Sequence record: NC_135730.1
Length of the DNA: 64,000 nucleotides
Direction: 5' to 3' (one strand)
DNA from: a phage
A program made the position numbers and the translations under genes. Positions 38,669 to 62,573 of this stretch are shown piece after piece; positions within the stretch are counted from its first letter, which is position 1; the number at the start of each line of letters is the position of its first letter. The notes beneath the pieces are model-generated. The model ran no database searches. It saw only the letters and a list, made by a program, of their open reading frames with translations, and was not told the DNA's origin.

Positions 38669-41600
38669 ATGCTTCCAATCCCTTTGCTAAAACTTGGTCG
38701 TCATTTCCTCGATAAGAGGGGTGGAATTAAGGAACTTGCTGTTCTGTCATACCCAATAGACAACAGTGATGGTACAAGCAACACAGTATCCTATGTAAAT
38801 AGCTTAGCTATACTTTTTGATGATGGTCAGCTTAATATTACTGGCTATAATAGGTTCGGGGAGTGTCGGACTGGAGATCTTGATACAATAAACTATCCTA
38901 ATGAGGCAGCTTGGAACGTAGACCATGTTTGGAGAGCTGACCGTGCATTTGTAATCCGCACATTCGATAATAAATTTTTCTATATTGGTTGCACAGCTGG
39001 TCTTATCGGATCGGAGGCAGCAGGTGGAAACGATGTTTGTGTCAGAGAGTGGACACCTTTGCCGGAACAGATCGTAACAGGGTTGCATTTGGACACCCAT
39101 CCTGAGAGACTTGTTGAAGTAATGGGTGGCGTAAACAATACAGTGTGGGTAATTGCTGCACCAGAGGCTGATGGTATGCTTCACCTGTACGGCTCTGGCA
39201 ATAATACTTACGGCTCTCTTCATGTTGACAAAAATCAGCATGCAACCCCTGTAAAGATTGGTGAGACATCGGAAAATCCTGAAACAGGTCCTTGGAAAAA
39301 CCCAAGCATCAACTGCGAGGTGCATGACAACTCTGTTATTTTCGGTGGTCCTAGAGGTTTCTGGATTGCTGGATACGACTTTCTGAGAAATAACAGTAGA
39401 AACGACCTTGTTTGGCCTCCTGTGCAGATTACTCGTAACGATTTGAGGGGCATTCCTGCAGATGAGGAGTGGAAAGGGTTTATGTGCGGTCCTAACGGGG
39501 CAATAATTGCCACACAGAGGATGCATAGACCCGATGACCAGCAGCTTGTTAACGTATTTTATGGTCAAAACATTTGGGGAGATGATACATGGCGGGAACT
39601 GAATATCACCTACACCCATGAGGTAATAATGGCTCGTGGGTACGGCACAAGTGGCATTTTCTTCAATAATGGCACCAAGCAGTATCGTGGATTCTCTCGC
39701 AACTTGTGTAATGATATTGGTGCACAATCTGCAAACAATAGTCCTAGGTCCGATTTTATCCACTATCAAGCTCTTGCTACAGCTAAATATGTTGAGCAAC
39801 GCCTGCCAGTTAGCTGGACAGAGAGTGTTTATTTCCAAGGCATCCATAGAGAAGGTTTCTTAGGGACCTTTACTGTTGTTAATGGTAAACTTTGGTGGTC
39901 AGGCATCCCAAGGGGAAGTTTTGCAGGCTCTAACAACCTGTTTGGAGGCAGACTTAATAGCCAGGGGTTCACAGAGGTTCCTGAGAATTGGTATAAAAAT
40001 GTCCCGGTAGACAGTTGGGGTGTTGAGGATATTTTCGACGTTAACGGTGTTAGCAGCGTTAGCAATATTTACATTGGTGACACGGTCAAGATGAAGTTGA
40101 AGCCTCAGCCAGAGGGGGCTACGTTCATTATTGACAAGATTGAACTGGTAAATGCTGCAGGTACGGTTGTTACAGATGCAAATTACCAATTCTCCACCAA
40201 CTGGAACCACGGCGGGGCCAACGAAGTTGTTGTTACCCAGTATAACAGAAATGTTAACAGACGTGGCCTGTACTCTGTAAAAATAACCTATCATGACAAG
40301 CATGGCACAGGCAGAACCCATACGACAAGGACTTTGAACTGGAACACCATAGTTCCTGCGTATCCGTCCAACGGCAAGTGGCATACTGTCGGTAGAAACA
40401 AACAGTTCCATGTCAACGATACTGTATACTTCGGGCTTAACGCAGCTCAACCTGCTGTAGAAGGCGATACATCGTATATAGTACGACTCCATAGAATGGA
40501 TGCCGGGTCTGTAACCTACGATGTGACTCAGGAGATCTACGATCAGAGACGTACCACGTATGACAATGTTGTGAAAACACAAGCCTTGTGGGAGTTCAAC
40601 CCTAACGGCAGAGGCGGTAAAATGTTGCAGGTCAACGAGCAAAACGGGACATCGTTGACTGTCCATGAACATCCAGATCCTTGGCCTGATCCTGGAAAAC
40701 CTAACTCTGGTGCTCGTACACTGAAAATTGTTAGCCATGATGCAGGATATTTCGGAATACGCTGGGAAGCCACAGTAAGATATGCCGACGGGACAACAAA
40801 CAACATAGGGATCACCCTTGGTGGCACTAGTGAGGATAACTCCCTGAAAATTGCCTACACCCCTAGGGGCATCTCTATTGACAACATAGATGTTGTTCGC
40901 AACGGTTACGGCGATGTGAATGTCAAAGTTACTCTTGGCGAACATCTTGGTGGGGAAAGGATCATCATGTATGCCTTTGATCATGATCCGCGCACCAATG
41001 GGACTTATGCAAATCAGGCATGGAGTTATCTGATAAATGCACCTGAGCCGAATACTAAAGAGTTCTACTACGGTATGAAGCGAGATGTGTGCAAGAAAAC
41101 AGGAACACATGATTGGATTGCTATCTGCGTTAAAGATGAGCGCACAGCTTGGGATGAGCCTGTTAACAGATGGTTCATAGGTATTCCTACCAGAAGTGAT
41201 AAGTATGTCGCAGAATATATTGTATGCATGGGCGGTACCAACCTAAACATGTGTTGGAACGAAGATGTAAACAAATACTCTGATTATGACTATATGAGGG
41301 ATTACTCTTGTAATTTGTGGTTTAACCAAACTACAGGTTACCCTCCGCGTCAGGTAAGGGTAAATCCTGCAATCTTTACAGATACGCAGGTTTTCTTGAC
41401 AAAACAGGCCAACGAGGTCCGGACCTTCAAGAACAAATACGACCCTAATAAGTGGTTCTATAACTGCTATGGGGCATTTTTCTGGGGACCTGGAGAATTA
41501 CCTGGTGGTGGCTCTTGTTTTGAGGCTGCAACTTACGCCAGTGACAGATTTATGGGCCAGGTCAAGAAATACAAGATAATTCCAGGGCCTGAAACTTTAG

Positions 41601-44305
41601 GTAACGCTGTCGACCCCTATATCATCATGAGTGATCTAAGATCGAACATGGATGGAACATCCATATCTATGCAAGTTCCGGTAACAAACGGATACAAGCG
41701 TGTTGTGATGATCATTAAGTGCGATCTGATAGGTAAGCAAGTTCTTGCAGAGAACGGAACTTCCACCCACCTATTTGAGACTGCTCTGCACTATCAGTTT
41801 GCTGATTCACCTTTTGCAGGGGATAAGAGAATATCTGACACAGACGCTGTGCGATGCAAGAAATTTATGCTAGGTGGTGGGTGGTGGTGGTATGAATTTG
41901 ACTTAACAGACAAATTCACCGACACATCTAAAGTGGTGACAGGACTTCGTCTAGACCTGGGTGAGAACATGCATAAAAGTGTTTGTGATGGCACCTACGG
42001 TGATCCTACGGTATACTTGAAGTATGTTTCTTTTGAGCACCCTGAAGATGTTGTTTATGGTCCAAAACTGAGGCTGTTTGGCAATTGGATTGCTAAAGAC
42101 AGAGAAGGGATGGGTAGGAAGGTAAGAGGCTTCCTGGTCGATGCTGGCACAGAGGATATGCTGGTGAATGCGGTGTGGCCTGAATTACCGGGAACTCAGT
42201 GGGACAATTCTGCTAAGTCTATAAACTGGTTCAATATCCACAGAGCTATGTGGGCAACTAACTGCTATCTGTGGAAAGAGTTGAATGACGGCGCTTTCGG
42301 GTTTACTGGTGGCAGAAGAATGGCAATCATTTGCTGGACAACGCTGCAGAGATGTTATGACCATGACTATGAGATTGGAGGCAGGGCATGGAAAAATATA
42401 AGGGATAGAATCATAACTAACTTTGCAGATCCTAACGGTGGCGGGGCGTATGGTTTCGACTGCAGCAGACTTATCCATTTGAACGGATCTTCGGCCTATA
42501 AGAAAGAAGGCTACTCCGGGTCCATGATTGAATGGGGCTTGGTAAAAGATGCTCGTGTGTTGATGGGTCAGCAACTTGCTGCTGCAATAGGACCGAACGC
42601 AGTACAATCTGTTAAACCAGCGTGGTTCGATATCCCATTATGGTCCTCTGGAACACCGGGAACTGCTGCAATCAACCCTACCACTGGGGATCTGGAAATC
42701 TCCTGGGAGGACTTGAAGCAGGTCGGTGGTTGGGACAAAACAGGGTATCAGGTTCAGTGGTGGAGAGCTGATGGATCTTTAGCTGCTGATGAGTTTGTTA
42801 AGGACAATTTCTACACTATGTCCTCTGCAAAAGCACAGCAATTATTTGGTCAGGCCACTCCGTCAACGATCACCATGTCTATGTGCTGTAAAGACAACAG
42901 GACTGGAGCTTTGGGGCCAAGGGTTGCTAAGGTTTTCTCAGGTATTAAATGGAATCTTCCTGTTCAAAGTGTTTCATGGAAGCAAATAGGTGATAACAAG
43001 CTGCTGGTTACCCCTGCCTGTCAGTTCAACGCAACTCTTAACGTTGATCCTGCTGTTGCGGCAAACTCAGCTAAAGCTTCTGACTTCTCTGTGTCTAACA
43101 CTGCTATGGCAGATGTGAGGAAGATTGACACACTGAACGCCAGAATTACCTGTAAAAACACTTATGGCACATTCCAAATCATCAACAACTTCACAGATGC
43201 TGATTCTAAGGTAGTGAGGACAGCAAGCCAGACTCTGAGTTTAGGAACTCTGGCCTATGCGGCACTGATCACCGAACAGTCGGCAACACTCCAAGGAGGC
43301 GGTGTAGGCAAGTCCATTGCAACACCTGTGTGGAAGCCGAATGAGTGGGTTGTGTTTGATTTGACTGTGGACTTCTCCAGTGATAATAACTGGACATGGG
43401 TAAGGAATTGTTTGTCACAGTTGATGGGCGGTACAAGCTCCATTAGCGATAGTCACGACTCTACCGACCCGAGCGTGTTCCAGGTGGGTAAAACTCACCC
43501 AGAGACTGGAGAAACGTTGCCTGACAGGAAGTATGCTTTGGTTTGCATCTCTTACGGGAAGGCAGATGTCACATTCTCAGGGACACACACTTATAACGGA
43601 ACTTACAACTTCTCAAGGAAGTATAGTCTCAAAGCAGGGAACATTATAGACGAGGTCGGTGTGCTGTATAATCCGGGCAACGGCATAGGGATTGTGGGCG
43701 GTAAACTGCAGATGCAGGAACCTTCTATCACCCCTTCCAACGTATCCGGGATTAGAAAGACTTGGGAAAGTAGTAATACCAACATTGCAACAGTGGATGC
43801 CACCACAGGGCTGGTAACATTTAAAGCTACTGGGAATGTCACCATAAAGTTTGTAGTTACAGATGATGCAGGCCGCAAAACGTCTTCAACATCGTTTACT
43901 GTCAAACAGATGGCACCACAGTGGAGAATGTGGATAGGTACAGCAACAAACGGGGCATACCCTAATCCGGCAGGTACTTCTGGTATGAAGACTTTCTCTA
44001 CAAGCAAACCGATGGAGTACGGCAGCGGTCCTAAGGTAGGGCAGATGGTGTACTTTGGTGCGTATATTCCTGAAATTATAGGGCTTCCGAGAAGTCAGCT
44101 TCAGTTGCTGTTTGGGGCTGGTGTTGACGATCTTGCCACTTTCGGGTATAGCGACAACATCGAGGCTGCAAGGAGTTCAGGATGGGTAGGGTTCAGAATG
44201 GAGTCTGGAAAGGAAGGCAGGATTCTAGGGACAGCCTCTATAGGTGTTATGTTCCCTGGTGACCAGCAGTATCGTCTAGAAGCCTACGCAACCTTTTCTC
44301 GTTAA
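38669..44305 (+). CDS. giant virion-associated protein with bacterial Ig-like (Big_2-like) domain
   Basis: 1878-aa ORF, last gene of the structural operon; Big_2-like segment IATVDATTGLVTFKATGNVTIKFVVTDDAGRKTSSTSFTV near the C-terminus. Confidence 0.55.
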   Translation: MLPIPLLKLGRHFLDKRGGIKELAVLSYPIDNSDGTSNTVSYVNSLAILFDDGQLNITGYNRFGECRTGDLDTINYPNEAAWNVDHVWRADRAFVIRTFDNKFFYIGCTAGLIGSEAAGGNDVCVREWTPLPEQIVTGLHLDTHPERLVEVMGGVNNTVWVIAAPEADGMLHLYGSGNNTYGSLHVDKNQHATPVKIGETSENPETGPWKNPSINCEVHDNSVIFGGPRGFWIAGYDFLRNNSRNDLVWPPVQITRNDLRGIPADEEWKGFMCGPNGAIIATQRMHRPDDQQLVNVFYGQNIWGDDTWRELNITYTHEVIMARGYGTSGIFFNNGTKQYRGFSRNLCNDIGAQSANNSPRSDFIHYQALATAKYVEQRLPVSWTESVYFQGIHREGFLGTFTVVNGKLWWSGIPRGSFAGSNNLFGGRLNSQGFTEVPENWYKNVPVDSWGVEDIFDVNGVSSVSNIYIGDTVKMKLKPQPEGATFIIDKIELVNAAGTVVTDANYQFSTNWNHGGANEVVVTQYNRNVNRRGLYSVKITYHDKHGTGRTHTTRTLNWNTIVPAYPSNGKWHTVGRNKQFHVNDTVYFGLNAAQPAVEGDTSYIVRLHRMDAGSVTYDVTQEIYDQRRTTYDNVVKTQALWEFNPNGRGGKMLQVNEQNGTSLTVHEHPDPWPDPGKPNSGARTLKIVSHDAGYFGIRWEATVRYADGTTNNIGITLGGTSEDNSLKIAYTPRGISIDNIDVVRNGYGDVNVKVTLGEHLGGERIIMYAFDHDPRTNGTYANQAWSYLINAPEPNTKEFYYGMKRDVCKKTGTHDWIAICVKDERTAWDEPVNRWFIGIPTRSDKYVAEYIVCMGGTNLNMCWNEDVNKYSDYDYMRDYSCNLWFNQTTGYPPRQVRVNPAIFTDTQVFLTKQANEVRTFKNKYDPNKWFYNCYGAFFWGPGELPGGGSCFEAATYASDRFMGQVKKYKIIPGPETLGNAVDPYIIMSDLRSNMDGTSISMQVPVTNGYKRVVMIIKCDLIGKQVLAENGTSTHLFETALHYQFADSPFAGDKRISDTDAVRCKKFMLGGGWWWYEFDLTDKFTDTSKVVTGLRLDLGENMHKSVCDGTYGDPTVYLKYVSFEHPEDVVYGPKLRLFGNWIAKDREGMGRKVRGFLVDAGTEDMLVNAVWPELPGTQWDNSAKSINWFNIHRAMWATNCYLWKELNDGAFGFTGGRRMAIICWTTLQRCYDHDYEIGGRAWKNIRDRIITNFADPNGGGAYGFDCSRLIHLNGSSAYKKEGYSGSMIEWGLVKDARVLMGQQLAAAIGPNAVQSVKPAWFDIPLWSSGTPGTAAINPTTGDLEISWEDLKQVGGWDKTGYQVQWWRADGSLAADEFVKDNFYTMSSAKAQQLFGQATPSTITMSMCCKDNRTGALGPRVAKVFSGIKWNLPVQSVSWKQIGDNKLLVTPACQFNATLNVDPAVAANSAKASDFSVSNTAMADVRKIDTLNARITCKNTYGTFQIINNFTDADSKVVRTASQTLSLGTLAYAALITEQSATLQGGGVGKSIATPVWKPNEWVVFDLTVDFSSDNNWTWVRNCLSQLMGGTSSISDSHDSTDPSVFQVGKTHPETGETLPDRKYALVCISYGKADVTFSGTHTYNGTYNFSRKYSLKAGNIIDEVGVLYNPGNGIGIVGGKLQMQEPSITPSNVSGIRKTWESSNTNIATVDATTGLVTFKATGNVTIKFVVTDDAGRKTSSTSFTVKQMAPQWRMWIGTATNGAYPNPAGTSGMKTFSTSKPMEYGSGPKVGQMVYFGAYIPEIIGLPRSQLQLLFGAGVDDLATFGYSDNIEAARSSGWVGFRMESGKEGRILGTASIGVMFPGDQQYRLEAYATFSR

Positions 44306-53846: not shown

Positions 53847-54149
53847 GTGGCAAGGATGCCACTTAAAAGAGTAATAAACATGTTATACCAGCAATATGAA
53901 CTTCGTGCAGAAAAAGAGTTAAATTTTGACAAAGATATTCACAGATATTATTATGGGAAAGTTAGAGGGCAAGCAAGAAAGTGTACTCCAACACTCTTTT
54001 ATGCCAGCAGACGACTAGCGCCAGAAGAGGCAACAGCAGAAAGGGTTGCGTACAACTGGAGAGTCACGTATGATATTGACAGATCCGATGTGATATCTGT
54101 TTTGGAAAACTTTGAAAACACTTACACACAAGTAGAGGACTTTTACTAA
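53847..54149 (+). CDS. hypothetical protein
   Basis: 100-aa ORF; end overlaps the next start. Confidence 0.35.
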   Translation: MARMPLKRVINMLYQQYELRAEKELNFDKDIHRYYYGKVRGQARKCTPTLFYASRRLAPEEATAERVAYNWRVTYDIDRSDVISVLENFENTYTQVEDFY

Positions 54150-55333
54150 TGTCAAGAAACGTATTCGAAAGTGGTCAAATCACTGTCCGTGAGTTGCCAG
54201 CTATTATTCAGTTTGCCCAACGTCATAGCCGATCTGTCCTAATTTTGGGACCAATGGGTGTGGGTAAAAGCCAGGTGATGAAGCAGATCGCTGATAATAT
54301 GTTCGGTGAGCGAGATGACAACCTTGTTGACGTGCGACTGTCAGATAAAGATCCTGCCGACTTATCTGGGCTACCTATCCCTGTAGAAGCGGATGGAACT
54401 ACACGTACAGTGTTTGCAATTCCAGAATTTTGGCCTGCTGATCCTGACTGGAGCGGAATTATCTTTCTGGATGAGCTCACTCATGCAGATAACTACCTGC
54501 AAAAGGTTGCAATGCAAATTATGCTTGACCACAAGTGCGGTACCTATGCATTCCCTAAGGGTTCTGTTTTTGTGGCTGCTGGTAACCGTTCTACAGATGG
54601 TGCGGTTCTTTCGGCGCTCGAAGCCCCTCTGGCTAACCGTTTTATCATTGTAGAGGTTACAAGCAATGCAGAGGTGTTTATTGAGGACTACGCATTCCTT
54701 AATGGGGTGCACTCCTCTGTAATTGGATATCTGAAAAGAGTTCCATCAGCTATCGATAATTATGAGGCCATGGCTGAGATTAATTGTCCATCTTTTGCCA
54801 CACCACGATCTTGGGTTGCTGCATCTGACATCTTGCACGATTTTGACAGCGGTATTATTTCTGACGCTATGGCCCGTGTTCTTCTGCAAGGTGCTATTGG
54901 TCACACTGCAGCGGTAGAGATCTGGACCTACCACACCAAGAAACGCAATTTACCGGAAATCGGTCGGATTATGGCAGGTGGCTGCAAAGAATACGTAGGC
55001 CCTAAGCAGCCAGACATTTTGTGGATTCTTGGATCTGAAGGTTGTATCGCTATTCGTAATATGATGGAAAATGCAAGTATCTCAGACGAAGATCTTGTCA
55101 GCTGCGTGGCAAACTTCCTCGATTTCCTTTGGGAAAACTTCAAGGACGAGAACCGAGATTTTGTATTCTCAGTCTTTATGGCGATGATGAAGCCTAATGC
55201 CTTAGGAAATGCCTTGCTTATCGGTAAAGGTCGTGACAAGATTGTTGCTCAGCTGATCAAAGCATACCCAAACCTGATGAAGATTGTAAAAGAGTTTGGT
55301 GAAGAGTTTAGCGCCATTTTGGCTAAAGCTTAA
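54149..55333 (+). CDS. MoxR / CobS-like AAA+ ATPase
   Basis: Walker A GPMGVGKS and Walker B IIFLDELTHAD; length and layout of AAA_5 / MoxR family. Confidence 0.6.
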   Translation: MSRNVFESGQITVRELPAIIQFAQRHSRSVLILGPMGVGKSQVMKQIADNMFGERDDNLVDVRLSDKDPADLSGLPIPVEADGTTRTVFAIPEFWPADPDWSGIIFLDELTHADNYLQKVAMQIMLDHKCGTYAFPKGSVFVAAGNRSTDGAVLSALEAPLANRFIIVEVTSNAEVFIEDYAFLNGVHSSVIGYLKRVPSAIDNYEAMAEINCPSFATPRSWVAASDILHDFDSGIISDAMARVLLQGAIGHTAAVEIWTYHTKKRNLPEIGRIMAGGCKEYVGPKQPDILWILGSEGCIAIRNMMENASISDEDLVSCVANFLDFLWENFKDENRDFVFSVFMAMMKPNALGNALLIGKGRDKIVAQLIKAYPNLMKIVKEFGEEFSAILAKA

Positions 55334-55736: not shown

Positions 55737-55762
55737 CCCCGCTTCGGCGGGGATTTTCTATT
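55737..55762 (+). terminator. intrinsic terminator (TTCG tetraloop)
   Basis: CCCCGC-ttcg-GCGGGG then ATTTTCTATTT. Confidence 0.55.
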
Positions 55763-55772
55763 TGGAGTTATT

Positions 55773-56273
55773 GTGAAAATTAAGATCTTTGCTATTATTT
55801 TGAGCGCATTTTTATCGCTGCCTGTTGTTGCAGCACCAAAACAAAAAGTATATCATACTTGCAAGCCCTCAGATACTAAGGAAAACATTCTGGCATGCAA
55901 TATCTACAGGGAGGCTAGAGGGGATGGCACGATGGGTATGCTGGCATCCGGGTTTGCCACACTAAACAGGAAATCTCACCCCAAATACCCAGACACTATA
56001 AGAAAGATTGTCTACCAACCTAACCAGTTTTCGTGGACAAACCACGGCAAAACTTTTAAGGTGACAGAAAAAGATTCATGGGATCACGCTAAAAGTCTTG
56101 CAAAGATGCTTCTAAAGGTCTATAATAACAACCATGTTGCATACATGGCTATGGACATAACAGGTGGAGCAACACACTACCATACAACCAAAGTACGACC
56201 GAAATGGGCAAAAAAGATGCAGAGGACAGCTCAATTCGGGAGTCATATCTACTACAAGGAGCGCAATAAATGA
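55773..56273 (+). CDS. secreted cell-wall hydrolase (SleB / Hydrolase_2-like)
   Basis: N-terminal signal peptide MKIKIFAIILSAFLSLPVVAA; family-like motifs NIYREARGD, QPNQFSW, GGATHYH; GTG start. Confidence 0.55.
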   Translation: MKIKIFAIILSAFLSLPVVAAPKQKVYHTCKPSDTKENILACNIYREARGDGTMGMLASGFATLNRKSHPKYPDTIRKIVYQPNQFSWTNHGKTFKVTEKDSWDHAKSLAKMLLKVYNNNHVAYMAMDITGGATHYHTTKVRPKWAKKMQRTAQFGSHIYYKERNK

Positions 56274-57389
56274 TTGTAAACAGTAATGAAACTAAAGCAG
56301 TACTAACCGGAAATATGGAGGTCACCAGGGGCTCAATTTCTCTGAACAAAGAGACTTTTGGGCTAATCATTAAAGGGATTTACGAAGATAAGGTGCTGGC
56401 AAGCTGCCGTGAACCAATCTTCAATGCTGTGGACTCTCATGTTGAGTCTGGACGGGGTGATGTGCCGATCATTATTCACTCTCCTACAGACCTTGAACCA
56501 TACTTCTTTGTGCAGGACGTTGGATTGGGCATGTCAGAAGAGATGGTCCGCAACACTTTCATGAACCTCGGTGAGTCAACCAAGCGCAACAGCAACGCTC
56601 TGGTTGGCAATAAAGGTGTTGGTTCAAAGGCTCCGTTCAGCATGGTGGACACTTTCGATGTTATCAGTGTGCACAATGGTATTGAAAGCACATATCTATT
56701 GTTCTTGGATCAGGGTATCCCAAACGTTACCAAGATCCGCGAGCGGAAGACTGAAGAGCACAACGGGGTAAAAGTTCAGTTCCATGTTAAGAAAGAGCAT
56801 GTCCTGAAATATCGCACTGCTATTGCATCGTGCTTACGCTATGCGAAGTTTCCGTTCATCGTCACCGATCCCATGACCAGTAAGATGTTAGAAGGTGACA
56901 AGGTTGAGGCACAGTATCATTACGAGAAGGATGGCTGGAAAATGACCATCCTGAAAGGTTATACCAGTTCTGATGAGAGCCGTGTTGTGATGGGTCACCA
57001 ACCTTACCGCTCCAAGTTCCTGGAGACATTGACCGATTACCCTGCAATCTGCGTGGAAATTCCTATTGGGGATTGCAATATTAACCCTGGGCGTGAATGG
57101 ACCATAGAGGGCCATGACGACGGTGGATTCCAGGATCGCCTGGAGGCATTTGTCAAAGAAGGTATACGTCTTCGCGGGGCAGAAGTTGTTGCAGAACTGG
57201 AGACGGCAAAAACCTCCGCAGAAGCACGTGAAATGATGAAGAATAGTGGAGTGTTCGGACACATCTTCGGCAAGAACTTTATGTGGAACCGTTGGGAAGA
57301 AACAGGGCTTGGCGACTTAGGCGATTGTGAAATTTTCGCTGGCGGCTTAAATAAAGGCCGCATAGGCTATGCTTGTTACGGAAAGTCGG
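56270..57389 (+). CDS. GHKL-family (Bergerat-fold) ATPase, N-terminal portion; 3' end runs into the assembly gap
   Basis: N-box REPIFNAVDS (ExxxNAxD), G1 box DVGLGMS (DxGxG), G2 box GNKGVGSKAPF; ORF continues into the N run at 57390. Confidence 0.5.
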
Positions 57390-57399
57390 NNNNNNNNNN
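57390..57399. other. assembly gap (10 N)
   Basis: Run of ten n characters in the sequence. Confidence 0.99.
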
Positions 57400-58262
57400 A
57401 GTTCTTACGAGGTGTATACCTTGTATTTAACGACGGAGACGGCAAATATAACCGGAATAAGTGTAACTACTTAAGCGAGATCACCGGACGCAACGTTTTC
57501 TATTGCCGGAACACGGATCTGGTGAAAGAGTTTAAAGAGGCGGCACACCATCCGTTCTTTGCAGATACGGTCAAATTGTTATCGGAGCTTCCACGCCGAC
57601 CTGCGAAGAAAGGTGAAACCAAAACTCGTTACGAGCCAGGCTACTGGGTTAAGAAGCTTAGAGAGGATGGCTACTTCCATCGTGAGCGCCTCACGAAGGC
57701 AGAGTTCAAGAAGATTAAGCATTGCATCCCTTATGAGGGGGATATCCAACGGGGAAGCTGCTGGCTGGGCCAGATGAGTAACATCTACCAGCAAAATTAT
57801 GACCGTGTGCGTGCTGCACTCCAGATTCCTGAAGGTGAAGATCTGTACCTGGTATCAGAATCTCGTCTGCTTTGGACTGATCCTGATTGCCAGTATGTTA
57901 CAGAGAAGAATGTGGAACATTTGTTGAAAGAGGATGCTTGGAAATTCTTACTGACTCGCGCAGCAAATGAAACTTCATATGACAGCCTGTATAGACAATT
58001 AGGGAAAATTATCCCCATGCAGGATTTTGGAAATTATCGGCCACATTTCCACAAGTGGGAAGGTAACACCGCGTGGAAGCACAGTGAGCTAAATCATCGT
58101 GCCAAAATCTTAATCGCCAACCGGGTTAAGTGCGGGAAGGCCTATATTGCAAGATTGGAAAAGAAATATCCACTTTTGAAGCATGTGGGCTTGAAATATT
58201 GGGACACTCCTGCTATGATTGAATACCGTGAACTGATCGATACAAAGAATAACATCAAATAA
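57400..58262 (+). CDS. hypothetical protein, post-gap portion (possibly the C-terminal part of the GHKL ATPase gene)
   Basis: Open frame from the gap to the stop at 58262; reading-frame relationship to the upstream ORF cannot be determined across the gap. Confidence 0.35.
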
Positions 58263-58272
58263 GGAGACCAAG

Positions 58273-59478
58273 ATGATTTTCATCTACGAACATTTCAAAA
58301 CCCGTAAAGAAGCACGAGACCGCCGTGCAGAACTTGAGAAGAAGGGTTTCACATGTGCCATTGAGAAAGGCGACACAACCTGGACACTGGCAGTTGGTGC
58401 CCCAGAGTTGTTCGATCCTGACCGTGACAGCGTCTGCTACACCCGTGAGGATTTTGAAACCCGCGAAGAGGCCCGTTTATTTCGATACGGTCTGGAAGAT
58501 AACGGTAAGTACGCTATGATCTTAGATTTAGGCGAAGGTTCCGTTAAACGTTGGGGCGTGGTATACCCACTGTGTGTTGTTCACGGTGTGGGGTTCACTG
58601 GGGTAGCAATCAAGTCAGAAGAACCTTTAGTAGAAGTCAAAGATCCGGTGCTGGAGGTGGTGAGCAGTGTGTCTCAGCAACAGTCTCGAAGCATCGAGCC
58701 TTTGGTAGTTATTTGTGGGGAACTCCTCCAGATCACCTGCAACGAAGGCATTTTTGAAATTCGCCGCAGCGAAAGTGAGGAAGTTTACCAGAAAGTCTTC
58801 GACCATATCTCTGTTCAGGAATATGATGAGGCAATTGGTGAAATCCTTGTCTGGCTGGAACGCAAGAATGAGTTCACCACACTTGCAGACAACCTGATCA
58901 TGAAAGATGGCAAGCTCTACTACTACGGTGTAGAGATGCGATCCACCATTGCAAAGAAAATTGAGAAAGATTATGCAGACGGAACGCTGGATGACCGCTA
59001 TGTGAAATTCCTCGTTCGCCTGCTACGCAATCCTTCTGCAAAATCTGTAAACATGCTCTACGATTTTATGCAGGCCAACGATATCCAGATTGCAGAAGAT
59101 GGTCGAATCATTTGCTACAAAGGGGTTCAGTTTAACGGCAGCAAGTGGGTGGATTGGCACAGTGGTAAAGTTCCACAATACCAGGGTGCTTTTGTATCCA
59201 TGCCTCGTAACTTTGTAGAGGATGATCCTGAAGCTGCGTGCTCCTATGGCTTACACTGCGCCAGCAAGGAGTATGCAAAGAGCTACGGCACTGTAATGAC
59301 TGTTATGGTTGATCCTGCAGATGTGGTTAGTGTGCCATACCAACACAATAGCGCTAAATGCCGTGCATGCCGCTATGAGATTGTGGTAGCTCCGGAAGCA
59401 CGCAAAGATGGAGACCCTATTGAATATGTAGTTGATCGTGACGGTAATACTATCGACATTCTTTACGAGGAGGCGTAA
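58273..59478 (+). CDS. hypothetical protein with two N-terminal ~45-aa tandem repeats
   Basis: Repeats EHFKTRKEARDRRAELEKKGFTCAIEKGDTTWTL and EDFETREEARLFRYGLEDNGKYAMILDLGEG; RBS AAGGAGA. Confidence 0.35.
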   Translation: MIFIYEHFKTRKEARDRRAELEKKGFTCAIEKGDTTWTLAVGAPELFDPDRDSVCYTREDFETREEARLFRYGLEDNGKYAMILDLGEGSVKRWGVVYPLCVVHGVGFTGVAIKSEEPLVEVKDPVLEVVSSVSQQQSRSIEPLVVICGELLQITCNEGIFEIRRSESEEVYQKVFDHISVQEYDEAIGEILVWLERKNEFTTLADNLIMKDGKLYYYGVEMRSTIAKKIEKDYADGTLDDRYVKFLVRLLRNPSAKSVNMLYDFMQANDIQIAEDGRIICYKGVQFNGSKWVDWHSGKVPQYQGAFVSMPRNFVEDDPEAACSYGLHCASKEYAKSYGTVMTVMVDPADVVSVPYQHNSAKCRACRYEIVVAPEARKDGDPIEYVVDRDGNTIDILYEEA

Positions 59479-60848
59479 TGGAAAAAGGGCAGTATGATGT
59501 AGGCACAGATGCTGCCCTCGTTGCAATCATGAGCGGTGAGAATGTCTTCGTTTCAGGACCCGCAGGTTGTGGGAAGACGTACCTCATCAACATGATCCAG
59601 TCAATGTATGGAGACTCTTGCATAACGGTTGCCCCGACAGGGGTAGCCGCTTTAAACGTTAATGGAGCAACAGCACACCGAACCTTCGATCTTGCAGCAG
59701 GTGTGAGCATGGAGTCGGACTGGACCGCAATAAGGGCAAAAACAGCAAAGCCTTTGAAAAGCAAGGCATTTACCATCCTAATTATCGATGAAATCTCTAT
59801 GATTCGTGCTGATAAGTTTATAGAGATGGATAGGAAACTCCGCTTCCTTCGAAAAAATGACAAACCTTTCGGGGGCATACAGGTCATATTGTTTGGCGAT
59901 TTTTACCAGGCACCTCCTGTTGTCTCTTCTATGGAGAAGGAAGCCTACTTCAACTTCTACCATACGGACCTGTGTTGCTATACCGAATCTTGGAAAGAGC
60001 TTGACCTCCACAACATAGCCCTAATAGATCAGTTCCGACAGGAGTCTATTCGATTTGCTACAATGCTCAACTGTGTTCGTGAGGGTCGTCGCATAAAAGA
60101 GGTTGTAGCAGAACTTAATGCTCGCTGTTACAAAGGAGGTGTACCAACAGACGCTCTCACAATTTGCGCCACCAACAAACAAGCAGAGGAAGTGAACAGA
60201 AGGTTCTATGATGCCATCAACGCCCCAGAGAAGGTATACACTGGTGAAATGAAGGGTAAGTTTCCCTCCACCCTGCCAGTTGAGCAGGAGATGAAGTTGA
60301 AAATTGGCATGAAAGTTATGATAACCGCCAACGATGTTGACCCGACGCACAAAGTACCTTATTATGTTAACGGAACACGTGCCACAATTGTTAAATTTAA
60401 GAACAAGGCGGTGGTGGTAGAGCTTGAAGATGGAACACAGGTTGACATAGAGCAGAGGTTGTGGGAGAATAACGAGTATAAGCCCTCTCAGAGATACAAC
60501 ATTGCAGAAAGGAAGATGGAGAAGTTTATAGAGAGGGTAGTGATTGGGTCATACAAGCAACTTCCTCTGAAATCTGGGTACGCCGTAACATCTCATAAAA
60601 GTCAAGGACTTACGCTAGATTGTTACAACCTAGACCTTGGAAAGAACGGAGCTTTCTCTCCTGGGATGACGTATGTCGCTTTGAGTAGAGTTAAGACAAT
60701 ACAAGGAATAAACTTGTTGCGTCCACTAAGAGAAGTTGACATTATTGTTGACCCGCGAGTCGTAGAGTTTTACAATACAACATTCCCTGACTTAGACAAA
60801 ATTGTCAGGAAAGATTTTGAAACCAGAGCAGAAGAGGGGGACGTATGA
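59478..60848 (+). CDS. SF1 DNA helicase (PIF1 / RecD / Dda-like)
   Basis: Walker A GPAGCGKTY, motif VAPTGVAA, Walker B IIDEISMI, GDFYQAPPV. Confidence 0.6.
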   Translation: MEKGQYDVGTDAALVAIMSGENVFVSGPAGCGKTYLINMIQSMYGDSCITVAPTGVAALNVNGATAHRTFDLAAGVSMESDWTAIRAKTAKPLKSKAFTILIIDEISMIRADKFIEMDRKLRFLRKNDKPFGGIQVILFGDFYQAPPVVSSMEKEAYFNFYHTDLCCYTESWKELDLHNIALIDQFRQESIRFATMLNCVREGRRIKEVVAELNARCYKGGVPTDALTICATNKQAEEVNRRFYDAINAPEKVYTGEMKGKFPSTLPVEQEMKLKIGMKVMITANDVDPTHKVPYYVNGTRATIVKFKNKAVVVELEDGTQVDIEQRLWENNEYKPSQRYNIAERKMEKFIERVVIGSYKQLPLKSGYAVTSHKSQGLTLDCYNLDLGKNGAFSPGMTYVALSRVKTIQGINLLRPLREVDIIVDPRVVEFYNTTFPDLDKIVRKDFETRAEEGDV

Positions 60849-61186
60849 GTTTGTGGAGAAATATCGTTAACTACGTGTGTGGCAATCCAACTCCTGAAGA
60901 GAAGGATGTTGTGATTCACGATTTTACTAAAAGATCTCGTGAAAAAGATCTACTGCTAACAAAGGTGACTGATAAAGATCCTGCAGTAGGGGACTGGGCA
61001 GGTTTTGCGTTTACATCGGACAAATACACCTTTAACAAAGGTGACTATCTTGTTGTGGATTTTAACGAAGACATCGAGGGTGCTGAACCTTACTATCAGA
61101 CCCTTATCGTTGCAGGGTGTGTTGATCTCTCTGCAGGTATGCACAGTTTGATTCTTTTTGAGCTTGACTCTGAAGACCTCCAGTAG
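60845..61186 (+). CDS. hypothetical protein
   Basis: 113-aa ORF overlapping the helicase stop by 4 nt. Confidence 0.35.
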   Translation: MSLWRNIVNYVCGNPTPEEKDVVIHDFTKRSREKDLLLTKVTDKDPAVGDWAGFAFTSDKYTFNKGDYLVVDFNEDIEGAEPYYQTLIVAGCVDLSAGMHSLILFELDSEDLQ

Positions 61187-61192
61187 TAAGAT
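61164..61192 (+). promoter_or_regulatory. candidate promoter for the methyltransferase gene
   Basis: TTGACT -17- TAAGAT overlapping the 3' end of the upstream ORF. Confidence 0.35.
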
Positions 61193-61203
61193 GTAAGTAT
61201 AAA

Positions 61204-61221
61204 GGGGAGGCACTCCTCCCC
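61204..61221 (+). promoter_or_regulatory. perfect GC-rich hairpin in the methyltransferase 5' leader
   Basis: GGGGAGG-cact-CCTCCCC, 7-bp stem, no 3' U-run on the plus strand; lies between the candidate promoter and the RBS. Confidence 0.3.
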
Positions 61222-61247
61222 ACAAAAACTAAGGAGAGCACCAAACG

Positions 61248-62573
61248 ATGAGTAAAACCAAATTAGAACTTACCTGGATAGGTAAAAACGAGCGCAAAAA
61301 GTTAGAGCCGCACATTTTGTTAGAAGATTCTAGCAAGTCTTACCACAGCCAGAAAGTGACCGAAAACGATATTTTTGATAATAAACTGATTTTTGGAGAT
61401 AACTTATTAGCATTGAAGGCGCTAGAGCAAGAGTACGCAGGCAAAGTGAAGTGTGTTTACATAGACCCACCATTCAATACCGGGAGGGCTTTTGAGCACT
61501 ACGATGATAGCCTGGAGCATTCCATTTGGCTGGGCTTAATGAGGGATAGGTTAGAAATAATTCGTAATCTTCTAAGTGATGATGGGGTAATATTCGTTCA
61601 CTTAGATGATTGCGAAATGGCGTATTTAAAAGTTTTGATGGACGAGATTTTTGGTCGTGCAAATCAGTTAAATACCATATCGATGACCACAAATTCCCCT
61701 TCGGGATTTAAGGCAACGGGAGCCACAGTTTTCTCCACAGCAAACTTTTTGCTTGTATATGCAAAAGATCGCACCCAGAAACCGCTTAACAAAATCTATA
61801 TACCTAAAGGGTATGATACCGGATATAACAAATACCTATTAAACCCGGATGATCATTATAAAAATTGGACGTGGTGCGGTATTGCCGATGCGTTTGCAAA
61901 GGCCAATGGCTACAAAGATGCAAAAGAAGCCAAGAAAAAACTGCCTGACACATTCGAGGATGAATTAGCACAATTTGCAATTGATAATGCAGAACGTGTA
62001 TTTCAATCTGTTGCAATTGGTGGTGGTGCTAAAATAAAGAGAAAAGAAACTATAGAGAAGTCAAAGAAAGATAGGGATAAGGTTTATGTACATCCAAATG
62101 AGGATGTTGAAGGATTTTATATCGCAAATGGTAGGCAAATGGTCTTTTACTCCAACAGGCTTTTGGAAATTGACGGTGATATGCAACCTGCGGAACTAAT
62201 AACTGATGTTTGGACAGACATTAGTTGGAATGGAATAGCAAATGAAGGCGGCGTTAGTTTCAAAAATGGTAAAAAACCAGAAGCGCTTTTGAAGCGGATT
62301 TTCGAAATGTGTACGCGAGAAGGTGATTTGGTATTGGATTCATTCGGTGGTTCGGGAACTACTGCCGCTGTAGCTCACAAGATGAAAAGACGTTGGATCT
62401 CCATCGAGATCGGTGATCATTGCCATACCCATATTATTCCGCGCTTGGAAAAAGTGATCGATGGGGAAGATCAAGGTGGTATTTCTAAGTCTGTAAACTG
62501 GCAAGGTGGTGGTGGCTTCCGTTATTACAAACTTGCCCCGACCTTAATTGCGAAAGATAAGTCTGATCAATAA
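61248..62573 (+). CDS. DNA methyltransferase, beta-class (N6-adenine or N4-cytosine)
   Basis: Motif IV IDPPFNTG precedes motif I LDSFGGSGTT with a long intervening region; RBS AAGGAGAG. Confidence 0.65.
   Translation: MSKTKLELTWIGKNERKKLEPHILLEDSSKSYHSQKVTENDIFDNKLIFGDNLLALKALEQEYAGKVKCVYIDPPFNTGRAFEHYDDSLEHSIWLGLMRDRLEIIRNLLSDDGVIFVHLDDCEMAYLKVLMDEIFGRANQLNTISMTTNSPSGFKATGATVFSTANFLLVYAKDRTQKPLNKIYIPKGYDTGYNKYLLNPDDHYKNWTWCGIADAFAKANGYKDAKEAKKKLPDTFEDELAQFAIDNAERVFQSVAIGGGAKIKRKETIEKSKKDRDKVYVHPNEDVEGFYIANGRQMVFYSNRLLEIDGDMQPAELITDVWTDISWNGIANEGGVSFKNGKKPEALLKRIFEMCTREGDLVLDSFGGSGTTAAVAHKMKRRWISIEIGDHCHTHIIPRLEKVIDGEDQGGISKSVNWQGGGGFRYYKLAPTLIAKDKSDQ

Follow-up and report, generated by a model that had tools for sequence, protein, structure and literature searches.

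The rIIA protein of phage T4 associates with the inner membrane, according to older biochemical work. T4 requires both rIIA and rIIB on lambda lysogens, where the two proteins act against RexAB, a system for abortive infection that works by depolarising the membrane (PMC8594841; PMC10312443; bioRxiv 10.1101/2025.11.20.689424), and transposon insertions in rIIA/B of T4 are depleted only if RexAB is present (bioRxiv 10.1101/2025.11.20.689424). Adler et al. studied five phages from four subfamilies (T4, MM02, SUSP1, N4, and the Vequintavirus EdH4) and reported that CRISPRi knock-down of RIIA or RIIB lowers the EOP on RexAB-expressing E. coli only (PMC11879866). In the description by Iyer et al. 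(PMC7824862), rIIA combines a GHKL ATPase at the N-terminus with a C-terminal domain that varies, and is central to counter-defence systems that are "poorly understood."

Here, we describe the rII locus in a window of 64,000 nucleotides from a phage (sequence record NC_135730.1). As a whole, the window is Vequintavirus. It contains structural and tail-fibre genes at 1–44 kb, then a leftward block of small genes, and then a rightward block that includes rII. We did not find tRNA or Rfam elements anywhere in the window, and a PADLOC scan returned only noise. rIIA with its features, rIIB, the hydrolase, the helicase, and the methyltransferase described below are on the plus strand.

The initial annotation had pointed to an open reading frame (ORF) that starts at 56270, runs into ten N's, and continues open to 58262, and had proposed that it would encode a GHKL protein of about 660 amino acids if the two parts are contiguous. 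This is what we found. An AAGGAG box sits 10 nt before the start codon (ATG at 56270), which shares an ATGA overlap with the stop of the preceding gene. With the N's deleted, the 5' part (56270–57389; codons 1–373 and the first base of codon 374) and the 3' part (57400–58262; the rest of codon 374 through codon 660 and the TAA stop at 58260–58262) form a single ORF of 1983 nt, which encodes 660 amino acids. We compared positions 56000–58600 to GenBank phages with megablast and obtained 119 records; in 114 of these, the match extends over 80% or more of the query. Among the matches listed, all are rV5-like phages of E. coli (Vequintavirus), and the top match is O157 typing phage 5, with 99.5% nucleotide identity. 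The joined protein is identical to that of typing phage 5 at 659/660 positions; the sole difference is Cys369 for Arg369 (T for C at 57374). This private substitution is in a variable loop, 16 nt upstream of the N-run.

Both parts of the protein match the same PHROG profile, 612 ("RIIA lysis inhibitor"), and in order: residues 1–342, from the 5' part, align to profile positions 1–354 of 725 (E = 8.4e-102), and the C-terminal half aligns to positions 403–724 (E = 2e-19), so that together they reach from position 1 to position 724. BLASTP aligns the first 198 amino acids to T4 rIIA (28% identity, E = 3e-21), and T4 rIIA matches a profile of the window protein's relatives at E = 1.6e-61 (profile positions 1–419). 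Several of the GenBank relatives name the pair rIIA/rIIB or "membrane integrity protector." By its profile match, its similarity to T4, and its rIIB partner, this protein belongs to the rIIA family, and the ORF is rIIA from a Vequintavirus (an rV5-like E. coli myophage); our analysis shows both the identity of rIIA and rIIB and their pairing. The initial annotation had considered that profile searches might lead to a family of known function, specifically a topoisomerase or MutL family. The searches did lead to a known family, but it is rIIA instead. The gene, the family, and the phenotype were already known, and rIIA is annotated in dozens of Vequintavirus genomes.

The 401-amino-acid ORF that follows rIIA is rIIB (58273–59478). 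It matches PHROG 609 ("RIIB") at E = 1.5e-61, and BLASTP aligns it to T4 rIIB at 37% identity over 204 amino acids (E = 4e-39). To describe the gene neighborhood, we used 80 IMG/VR loci, each with a gene for a relative of the window's rIIA. In 74 of these loci, rIIB comes immediately after rIIA, and the remaining six end before the position of rIIB, so the pairing holds in 74/74 informative loci. We therefore regard rIIB as the obligate partner of rIIA.

The other neighbors, none of which is part of rII, are a SleB/CwlJ-like cell-wall hydrolase (55773–56273; Pfam Hydrolase_2, E = 2e-19), whose stop codon forms the ATGA overlap with the start of rIIA; a Dda/PIF1-like SF1B helicase (59478–60848; Pfam PIF1, E = 1e-32; PHROG 325 "Dda-like helicase," E = 6e-112); and an N6/N4 DNA methyltransferase (61248–62573; Pfam N6_N4_Mtase, E = 2e-42). 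The initial annotation described the 401-amino-acid protein, the helicase, and the methyltransferase correctly, and viewed them with the GHKL protein as a DNA-metabolism block whose conservation in related phages would be informative. However, the helicase follows rII in just 8/80 of the IMG/VR loci (L005–L012, which have full-length similarity to the window's rIIA and which we infer to be a Vequintavirinae-like clade), and the methyltransferase follows it in just 1/80. Because rIIB is always linked to rIIA while the helicase and the methyltransferase rarely are, the functional unit is rIIA–rIIB. The adjacency of the helicase and the methyltransferase is lineage-specific synteny outside rII, and we rejected a functional module with these two genes, as the linkage is confined to loci with full-length similarity.

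The genes from the hydrolase (the first gene, at 55773) to a 113-amino-acid ORF (which ends at 61186) are tightly packed, with stops and starts that overlap or nearly abut. There is a terminator-like hairpin just upstream of the hydrolase gene (55737–55752) and another hairpin beyond the 113-amino-acid ORF (61204–61221). This arrangement is compatible with a single transcription unit between the two hairpins. Scans for promoters and terminators found no excess over the shuffled expectation.

The initial annotation called the role of the GHKL protein unknown and listed DNA topology, modification, and anti-defence as possibilities. Because the EdH4 proteins are nearly identical to those in the window (651/660 amino acids for rIIA and 390/401 for rIIB), the Rex result, which was obtained by others with the EdH4 orthologues, carries over to this phage with little risk. 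And because the knock-downs in EdH4 affect plating only on hosts with λ RexAB, the role is in counter-defence and not in DNA topology. As a finding about this window, this is of low importance: the gene is correctly assembled and already annotated, and the phenotype was tested in a near-identical phage.

Is countering RexAB the main natural role of rIIA in this phage? It could instead act mainly in membrane integrity, in the timing of lysis, or against other abortive-infection systems, with the sensitivity to Rex as a side effect. The RIIA/B homologues of Bas63 have been linked to QatABCD (PMC11482910), and rIIB itself triggers a bacterial gasdermin/CARD defence (PMC10312443); these reports suggest a wider role for rII. 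Also, the rIIA/B orthologues of bas37 affect fitness on clinical isolates (bioRxiv 10.1101/2025.11.20.689424). GenBank annotations such as "membrane integrity protector" and "lysis inhibitor" fit with a broader role, as does the translational coupling between rIIA and the gene for a cell-wall hydrolase. At E ≤ 1e-30, the family has at least 13,499 representatives (clusters at 50% identity), which makes it very large, and most of the matches listed span the profile from end to end. Furthermore, many viral contigs with rIIA are from environmental metagenomes, which suggests, but falls short of showing, hosts that are unlikely to carry lambda's Rex. On the other hand, in the sole direct experiment on a Vequintavirus orthologue, the phenotype depended on Rex, and there was no defect in its absence (PMC11879866). 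Overall, we think it unlikely, though well worth keeping in mind, that the main role of rIIA is something other than countering RexAB.

We then considered how rIIA might act as a counter-defence protein. The N-terminal part of rIIA (approximately amino acids 25–200; 56342–56869) is a GHKL (Bergerat-fold) ATP-binding domain, as supported by hhalign to HtpG and by a profile search of PDB. The initial annotation had reported three Bergerat motifs, and all three can be read from the sequence where it placed them. Motif I is E48-P-I-F-N52-A-V-D55 (E48-x3-N52-A-x-D55; 56411–56434), with the catalytic glutamate and the magnesium-binding asparagine. Motif II is D83-V-G-L-G87 (D83-x-G85-x-G87; 56516–56530), with the adenine-binding aspartate. 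Motif III is G113-N-K-G-V-G118 (G113-x2-G116-x-G118; 56606–56623), and it is at the end of an ATP-lid segment that begins with S103-T104-K105 (56576–56623) and that aligns, by HMM, to "SGTK ... IGQFGVG" of HtpG. In a search of the kind that the initial annotation had proposed, the protein matches Pfam's HATPase_c_3 (PF13589) with a score of 36.9 bits (E = 4.4e-9; gathering cut-off, 25 bits). Because this score is above the cut-off, the Bergerat motifs are not a chance pattern. By its motifs, its profile match, and its predicted fold, rIIA is a member of the GHKL/Bergerat-fold ATPase family.

To check which residues are conserved, we examined 169 representatives of the rIIA family, with a median identity of 22%. 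Y38, R47, E48, N52, D55, P72, D83, G85, S103, G113, G116, G118, Y246, R275, and E276 are conserved in 100% of these, and G87 is conserved in 92%. The strict conservation of the catalytic glutamate, the magnesium-binding asparagine, the adenine-binding aspartate, and the glycines of the lid argues for a working ATPase. rIIA probably hydrolyses ATP in the manner of Hsp90.

The likeness to Hsp90 comes from several comparisons. When we compared the family profile to the sequences in PDB, the best 60 of the 140 matches with E ≤ 1 were all to Hsp90, TRAP1, GRP94, or HtpG (down to E = 3e-10), with no topoisomerase or MutL chain among those 60. These matches needed the family profile: with the single rIIA protein as the query, the best match in PDB had E = 0.12. 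hhalign places residues 28–198 of rIIA on residues 15–210 of E. coli's HtpG, with a probability of 96.8% (E = 2.3e-10). The rIIA profile does not match gp39, which is the GHKL subunit of T4 topoisomerase II. Finally, structure prediction, as had been suggested, gave an AlphaFold2 model with a pLDDT of 82.6, in which the three-dimensional Bergerat fold is present, and the top 50 Foldseek hits to this model are all Hsp90s (E about 1e-15). Judging from the profiles and the predicted structure, the ATPase module of rIIA is specifically Hsp90-like.

Taken together, the PDB, hhalign, gp39, and Foldseek results also suggest that the similarity to Hsp90 extends into a second, middle/transducer-like domain (approximately amino acids 201–344; 56870–57300). 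In Hsp90, an arginine of the middle domain (R380 in yeast; R336 in HtpG) contacts the γ-phosphate of ATP. rIIA has an invariant R275-E276 (57092–57097; S-R278-E in T4 rIIA), which is a candidate for the γ-phosphate-sensing arginine loop. HMMER aligns R275-E276 with the "LNVSRE" loop of HtpG (R336), although a stand-alone hhalign of rIIA 195–345 to the middle domain of HtpG is not significant. We looked for the C-terminal dimerisation domain of Hsp90 in rIIA and it is absent, and rIIA scores just 18 bits against NCBIfam's NF010683 ("HSP90 family protein"), which has a cut-off of 455. Because it lacks the dimerisation domain and is so far below the curated threshold, rIIA lies outside the Hsp90 family proper. 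All of the GHKL matches in NCBIfam (sacsin, HSP90, and BbrUII) are below threshold. The C-terminal (output) half of rIIA has no known fold.

These results also bear on the idea that rIIA acts on DNA: it could be the ATPase subunit of a topoisomerase II or VI, or a MutL-like or MORC-like protein, that works with the neighboring helicase and methyltransferase in DNA topology, repair, or modification. The initial annotation noted the lack of TOPRIM or MutL context, and indeed, searches of Pfam and NCBIfam found no TOPRIM domain, MutL C-terminal domain, or MORC-associated domain in rIIA. With these accessory domains missing, with the best 60 PDB matches all to the Hsp90 family, and with gp39 unmatched, we rejected an identity as a topoisomerase, MutL, or MORC protein. 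The rare linkage of the helicase and the methyltransferase to rII also counts against a DNA-acting rIIA, as does the knock-down phenotype, which is specific to Rex and is not a defect in replication (PMC11879866). We consider a DNA-acting rIIA to be very improbable.

We are highly confident in the joint claim that the intact rIIA and rIIB of this Vequintavirus are an accessory counter-defence module, with a mechanism that appears to be Hsp90-like. As we envision it, the rII module would allow the phage to grow in cells with abortive-infection systems that act by depolarising the membrane, of which lambda's RexAB is the classic case. rIIA would be an active ATPase with the architecture of the N-terminal and middle domains of Hsp90. 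In this ATPase, Glu48 would activate a water molecule, Asn52 would hold Mg2+, Asp83 would read the adenine, the glycine-rich lid would close over ATP, and Arg275 from the second domain would contact the γ-phosphate. By analogy with Hsp90, the binding of ATP may dimerise or clamp the N-terminal domains and so drive a conformational cycle. The C-terminal half, which is specific to rIIA, would relay this cycle to a target, probably together with rIIB at the inner membrane, and Rex-type depolarisation would thereby be blocked or reversed. No transmembrane segment is predicted in rIIA (the maximum Kyte-Doolittle average over 19 residues is 0.84).

More specifically, we propose that the rIIA family is a distant phage-borne offshoot of the Hsp90 lineage that has kept the split active site, and that an ATP-driven clamp cycle, beyond the mere binding of ATP, neutralises depolarising defences of the RexAB type. 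We put this forward tentatively, with slightly more doubt than belief. Our literature searches turned up nothing relevant on the biochemistry of the rIIA ATPase or on a connection of rII with Hsp90. The Hsp90-like reading is absent from the literature that we searched, but others who repeat these structure searches may notice it too. If the proposal is true, then the roughly 70-year-old rII problem could be tested with point mutants (E48A and R275A) and possibly with inhibitors of the Hsp90-type ATP site. More broadly, the invariant catalytic residues, the Hsp90-like module, and the output half without a known fold suggest concrete and cheap rII/Rex experiments.

The window has one N-run, at 57390–57399. 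As the window stands, the two parts of rIIA differ in frame, but only because ten is not a multiple of three (10 = 1 mod 3). In Escherichia phage naam and O157 typing phage 5, no base separates the 40 nt to the left of the run from the 40 nt to its right, and at least three relatives have contiguous flanks. Similarly, in every megablast match listed, the 2601 bases of the query correspond to 2589–2591 bases of the record. In naam, typing phage 5, and EdH4, the gene is annotated with exactly the length of the joined ORF. Since the flanks abut in the relatives, the ten N's stand for zero missing bases, and we view them as an artefact of scaffolding or masking. The junction that is predicted from the relatives runs from ...GGAAAGTCGG directly into AGTTCTTACG..., with zero extra bases. 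That the N's are instead a real assembly gap, with two separate and perhaps unrelated genes or a truncated pseudogene on either side, has the different frames in its favor, but the frame shift is just 10 mod 3, the comparison with three relatives speaks against a true gap or two genes, and both halves fit one PHROG profile in order, so we give this practically no credence. The lesson for annotation is to delete the N-run.

Among described systems, the closest to this locus is the rIIA of other Vequintavirus phages (rV5, O157 typing phage 5, naam, EdH4, and the Bas48-type isolates of BASEL), which is essentially the same gene: it has 97–99.5% nucleotide identity to the window's rIIA, 651–659 of 660 amino acids are identical, and the synteny is shared. 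The window's rIIA differs from these only by the inserted N-run and the private Cys369.

The Hsp90 family (HtpG, TRAP1, GRP94, and Hsp82) has N-domain motifs that resemble those of rIIA: RE(L/P)I(S/F)NA(S/V)DA, D-x-G-x-GM, SGTK/STK, and (I/V)G-x-(F/K)GVG. Both also appear to have a second domain with an "SRE" arginine loop, which is followed by a long helix.

T4 rIIA is the founding member of the rIIA family. The window's rIIA has only 28% identity to T4 rIIA, BLASTP reaches only the first ~200 amino acids, and the C-terminal halves can be aligned only at the level of profiles. rIIB is longer in the window than in T4 (401 vs. 312 amino acids) and carries an additional, duplicated module at its N-terminus. 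The surroundings differ as well: rII is next to the topoisomerase gene 60 and denB in T4, and next to the cell-wall hydrolase and the Dda-like helicase in the window. Yet the two rIIA proteins are of similar length (725 amino acids in T4 vs. 660) and have the same order of domains: a GHKL ATPase at the N-terminus, then a second domain in which an S/G-R-E loop is invariant, and finally a long C-terminal region. In both phages, rIIB is the adjacent partner gene, and T4 rII and the Vequintavirus orthologue (in EdH4) have a Rex-dependent phenotype in common.

The rIIA gene of the window carries T at position 57374, so codon 369 encodes cysteine, while three close Vequintavirus relatives (naam, O157 typing phage 5, and EdH4) have C at this position and encode Arg369. 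Cys369 is the only amino-acid change in rIIA that is private to the window relative to these three phages, and position 57374 lies 16 nt upstream of the run of Ns. T57374 may be either a contig-end error or a genuine polymorphism in a variable loop.

Sixteen GenBank records titled "Campylobacter phage", all without annotation, also match window 56000–58600. Over this region, these records (for instance MG065659.1, MG065646.1, and MG065647.1) are 97–99% identical to E. coli Vequintavirus phages. Their stated host, C. jejuni, looks doubtful: contamination or mislabelling.

Directly 5' of rIIA is a gene for a SleB/CwlJ-like cell-wall hydrolase (55773–56273), whose stop codon overlaps the rIIA start in a shared ATGA. 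The hydrolase gene is itself preceded by a GC-rich, terminator-like hairpin (55737–55752). A hydrolase homolog also directly precedes rIIA in several of the IMG/VR loci that encode rIIA relatives (L005, L009–L012, and L047). Within 55737–56273, a wall hydrolase gene adjoins genes (rII) that are named "lysis inhibitor". Another gene, within 53847–55333, encodes a MoxR-like AAA+ ATPase of 394 amino acids (PHROG 1297, E = 2e-110). It is preceded by a 100-aa ORF, which relatives label "ATPase" as well, and the pair is kept in 4 of the 80 related loci (L005, L006, L007, and L011).

Downstream, the stop codon of the helicase gene is overlapped by a 113-aa ORF (within 60845–61225) that belongs to PHROG 11869, of unknown function, and has a weak match to a DNA-ligase family (E = 2e-4). 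Beyond this ORF lies a hairpin (61204–61221), perfect and GC-rich, that scores as a minus-strand terminator. After the tail-fibre genes, a 1878-aa ORF (38669–44305), annotated in naam only as "hypothetical protein", contains long antisense ORFs of 347 and 403 amino acids, which hint at unusual composition or repeats.

Finally, rIIB opens with two tandem modules of about 45 amino acids each (within 58273–58600), with the pattern F-x-T-R-x-E-A-R. The two modules match each other in a pairwise comparison (E = 2e-4), and residues 8–42 have a sub-threshold match to Pfam's SPOR domain. The rIIB protein of T4 is 89 amino acids shorter, and its BLASTP alignment with the window's rIIB begins only at residue 172 of the latter.
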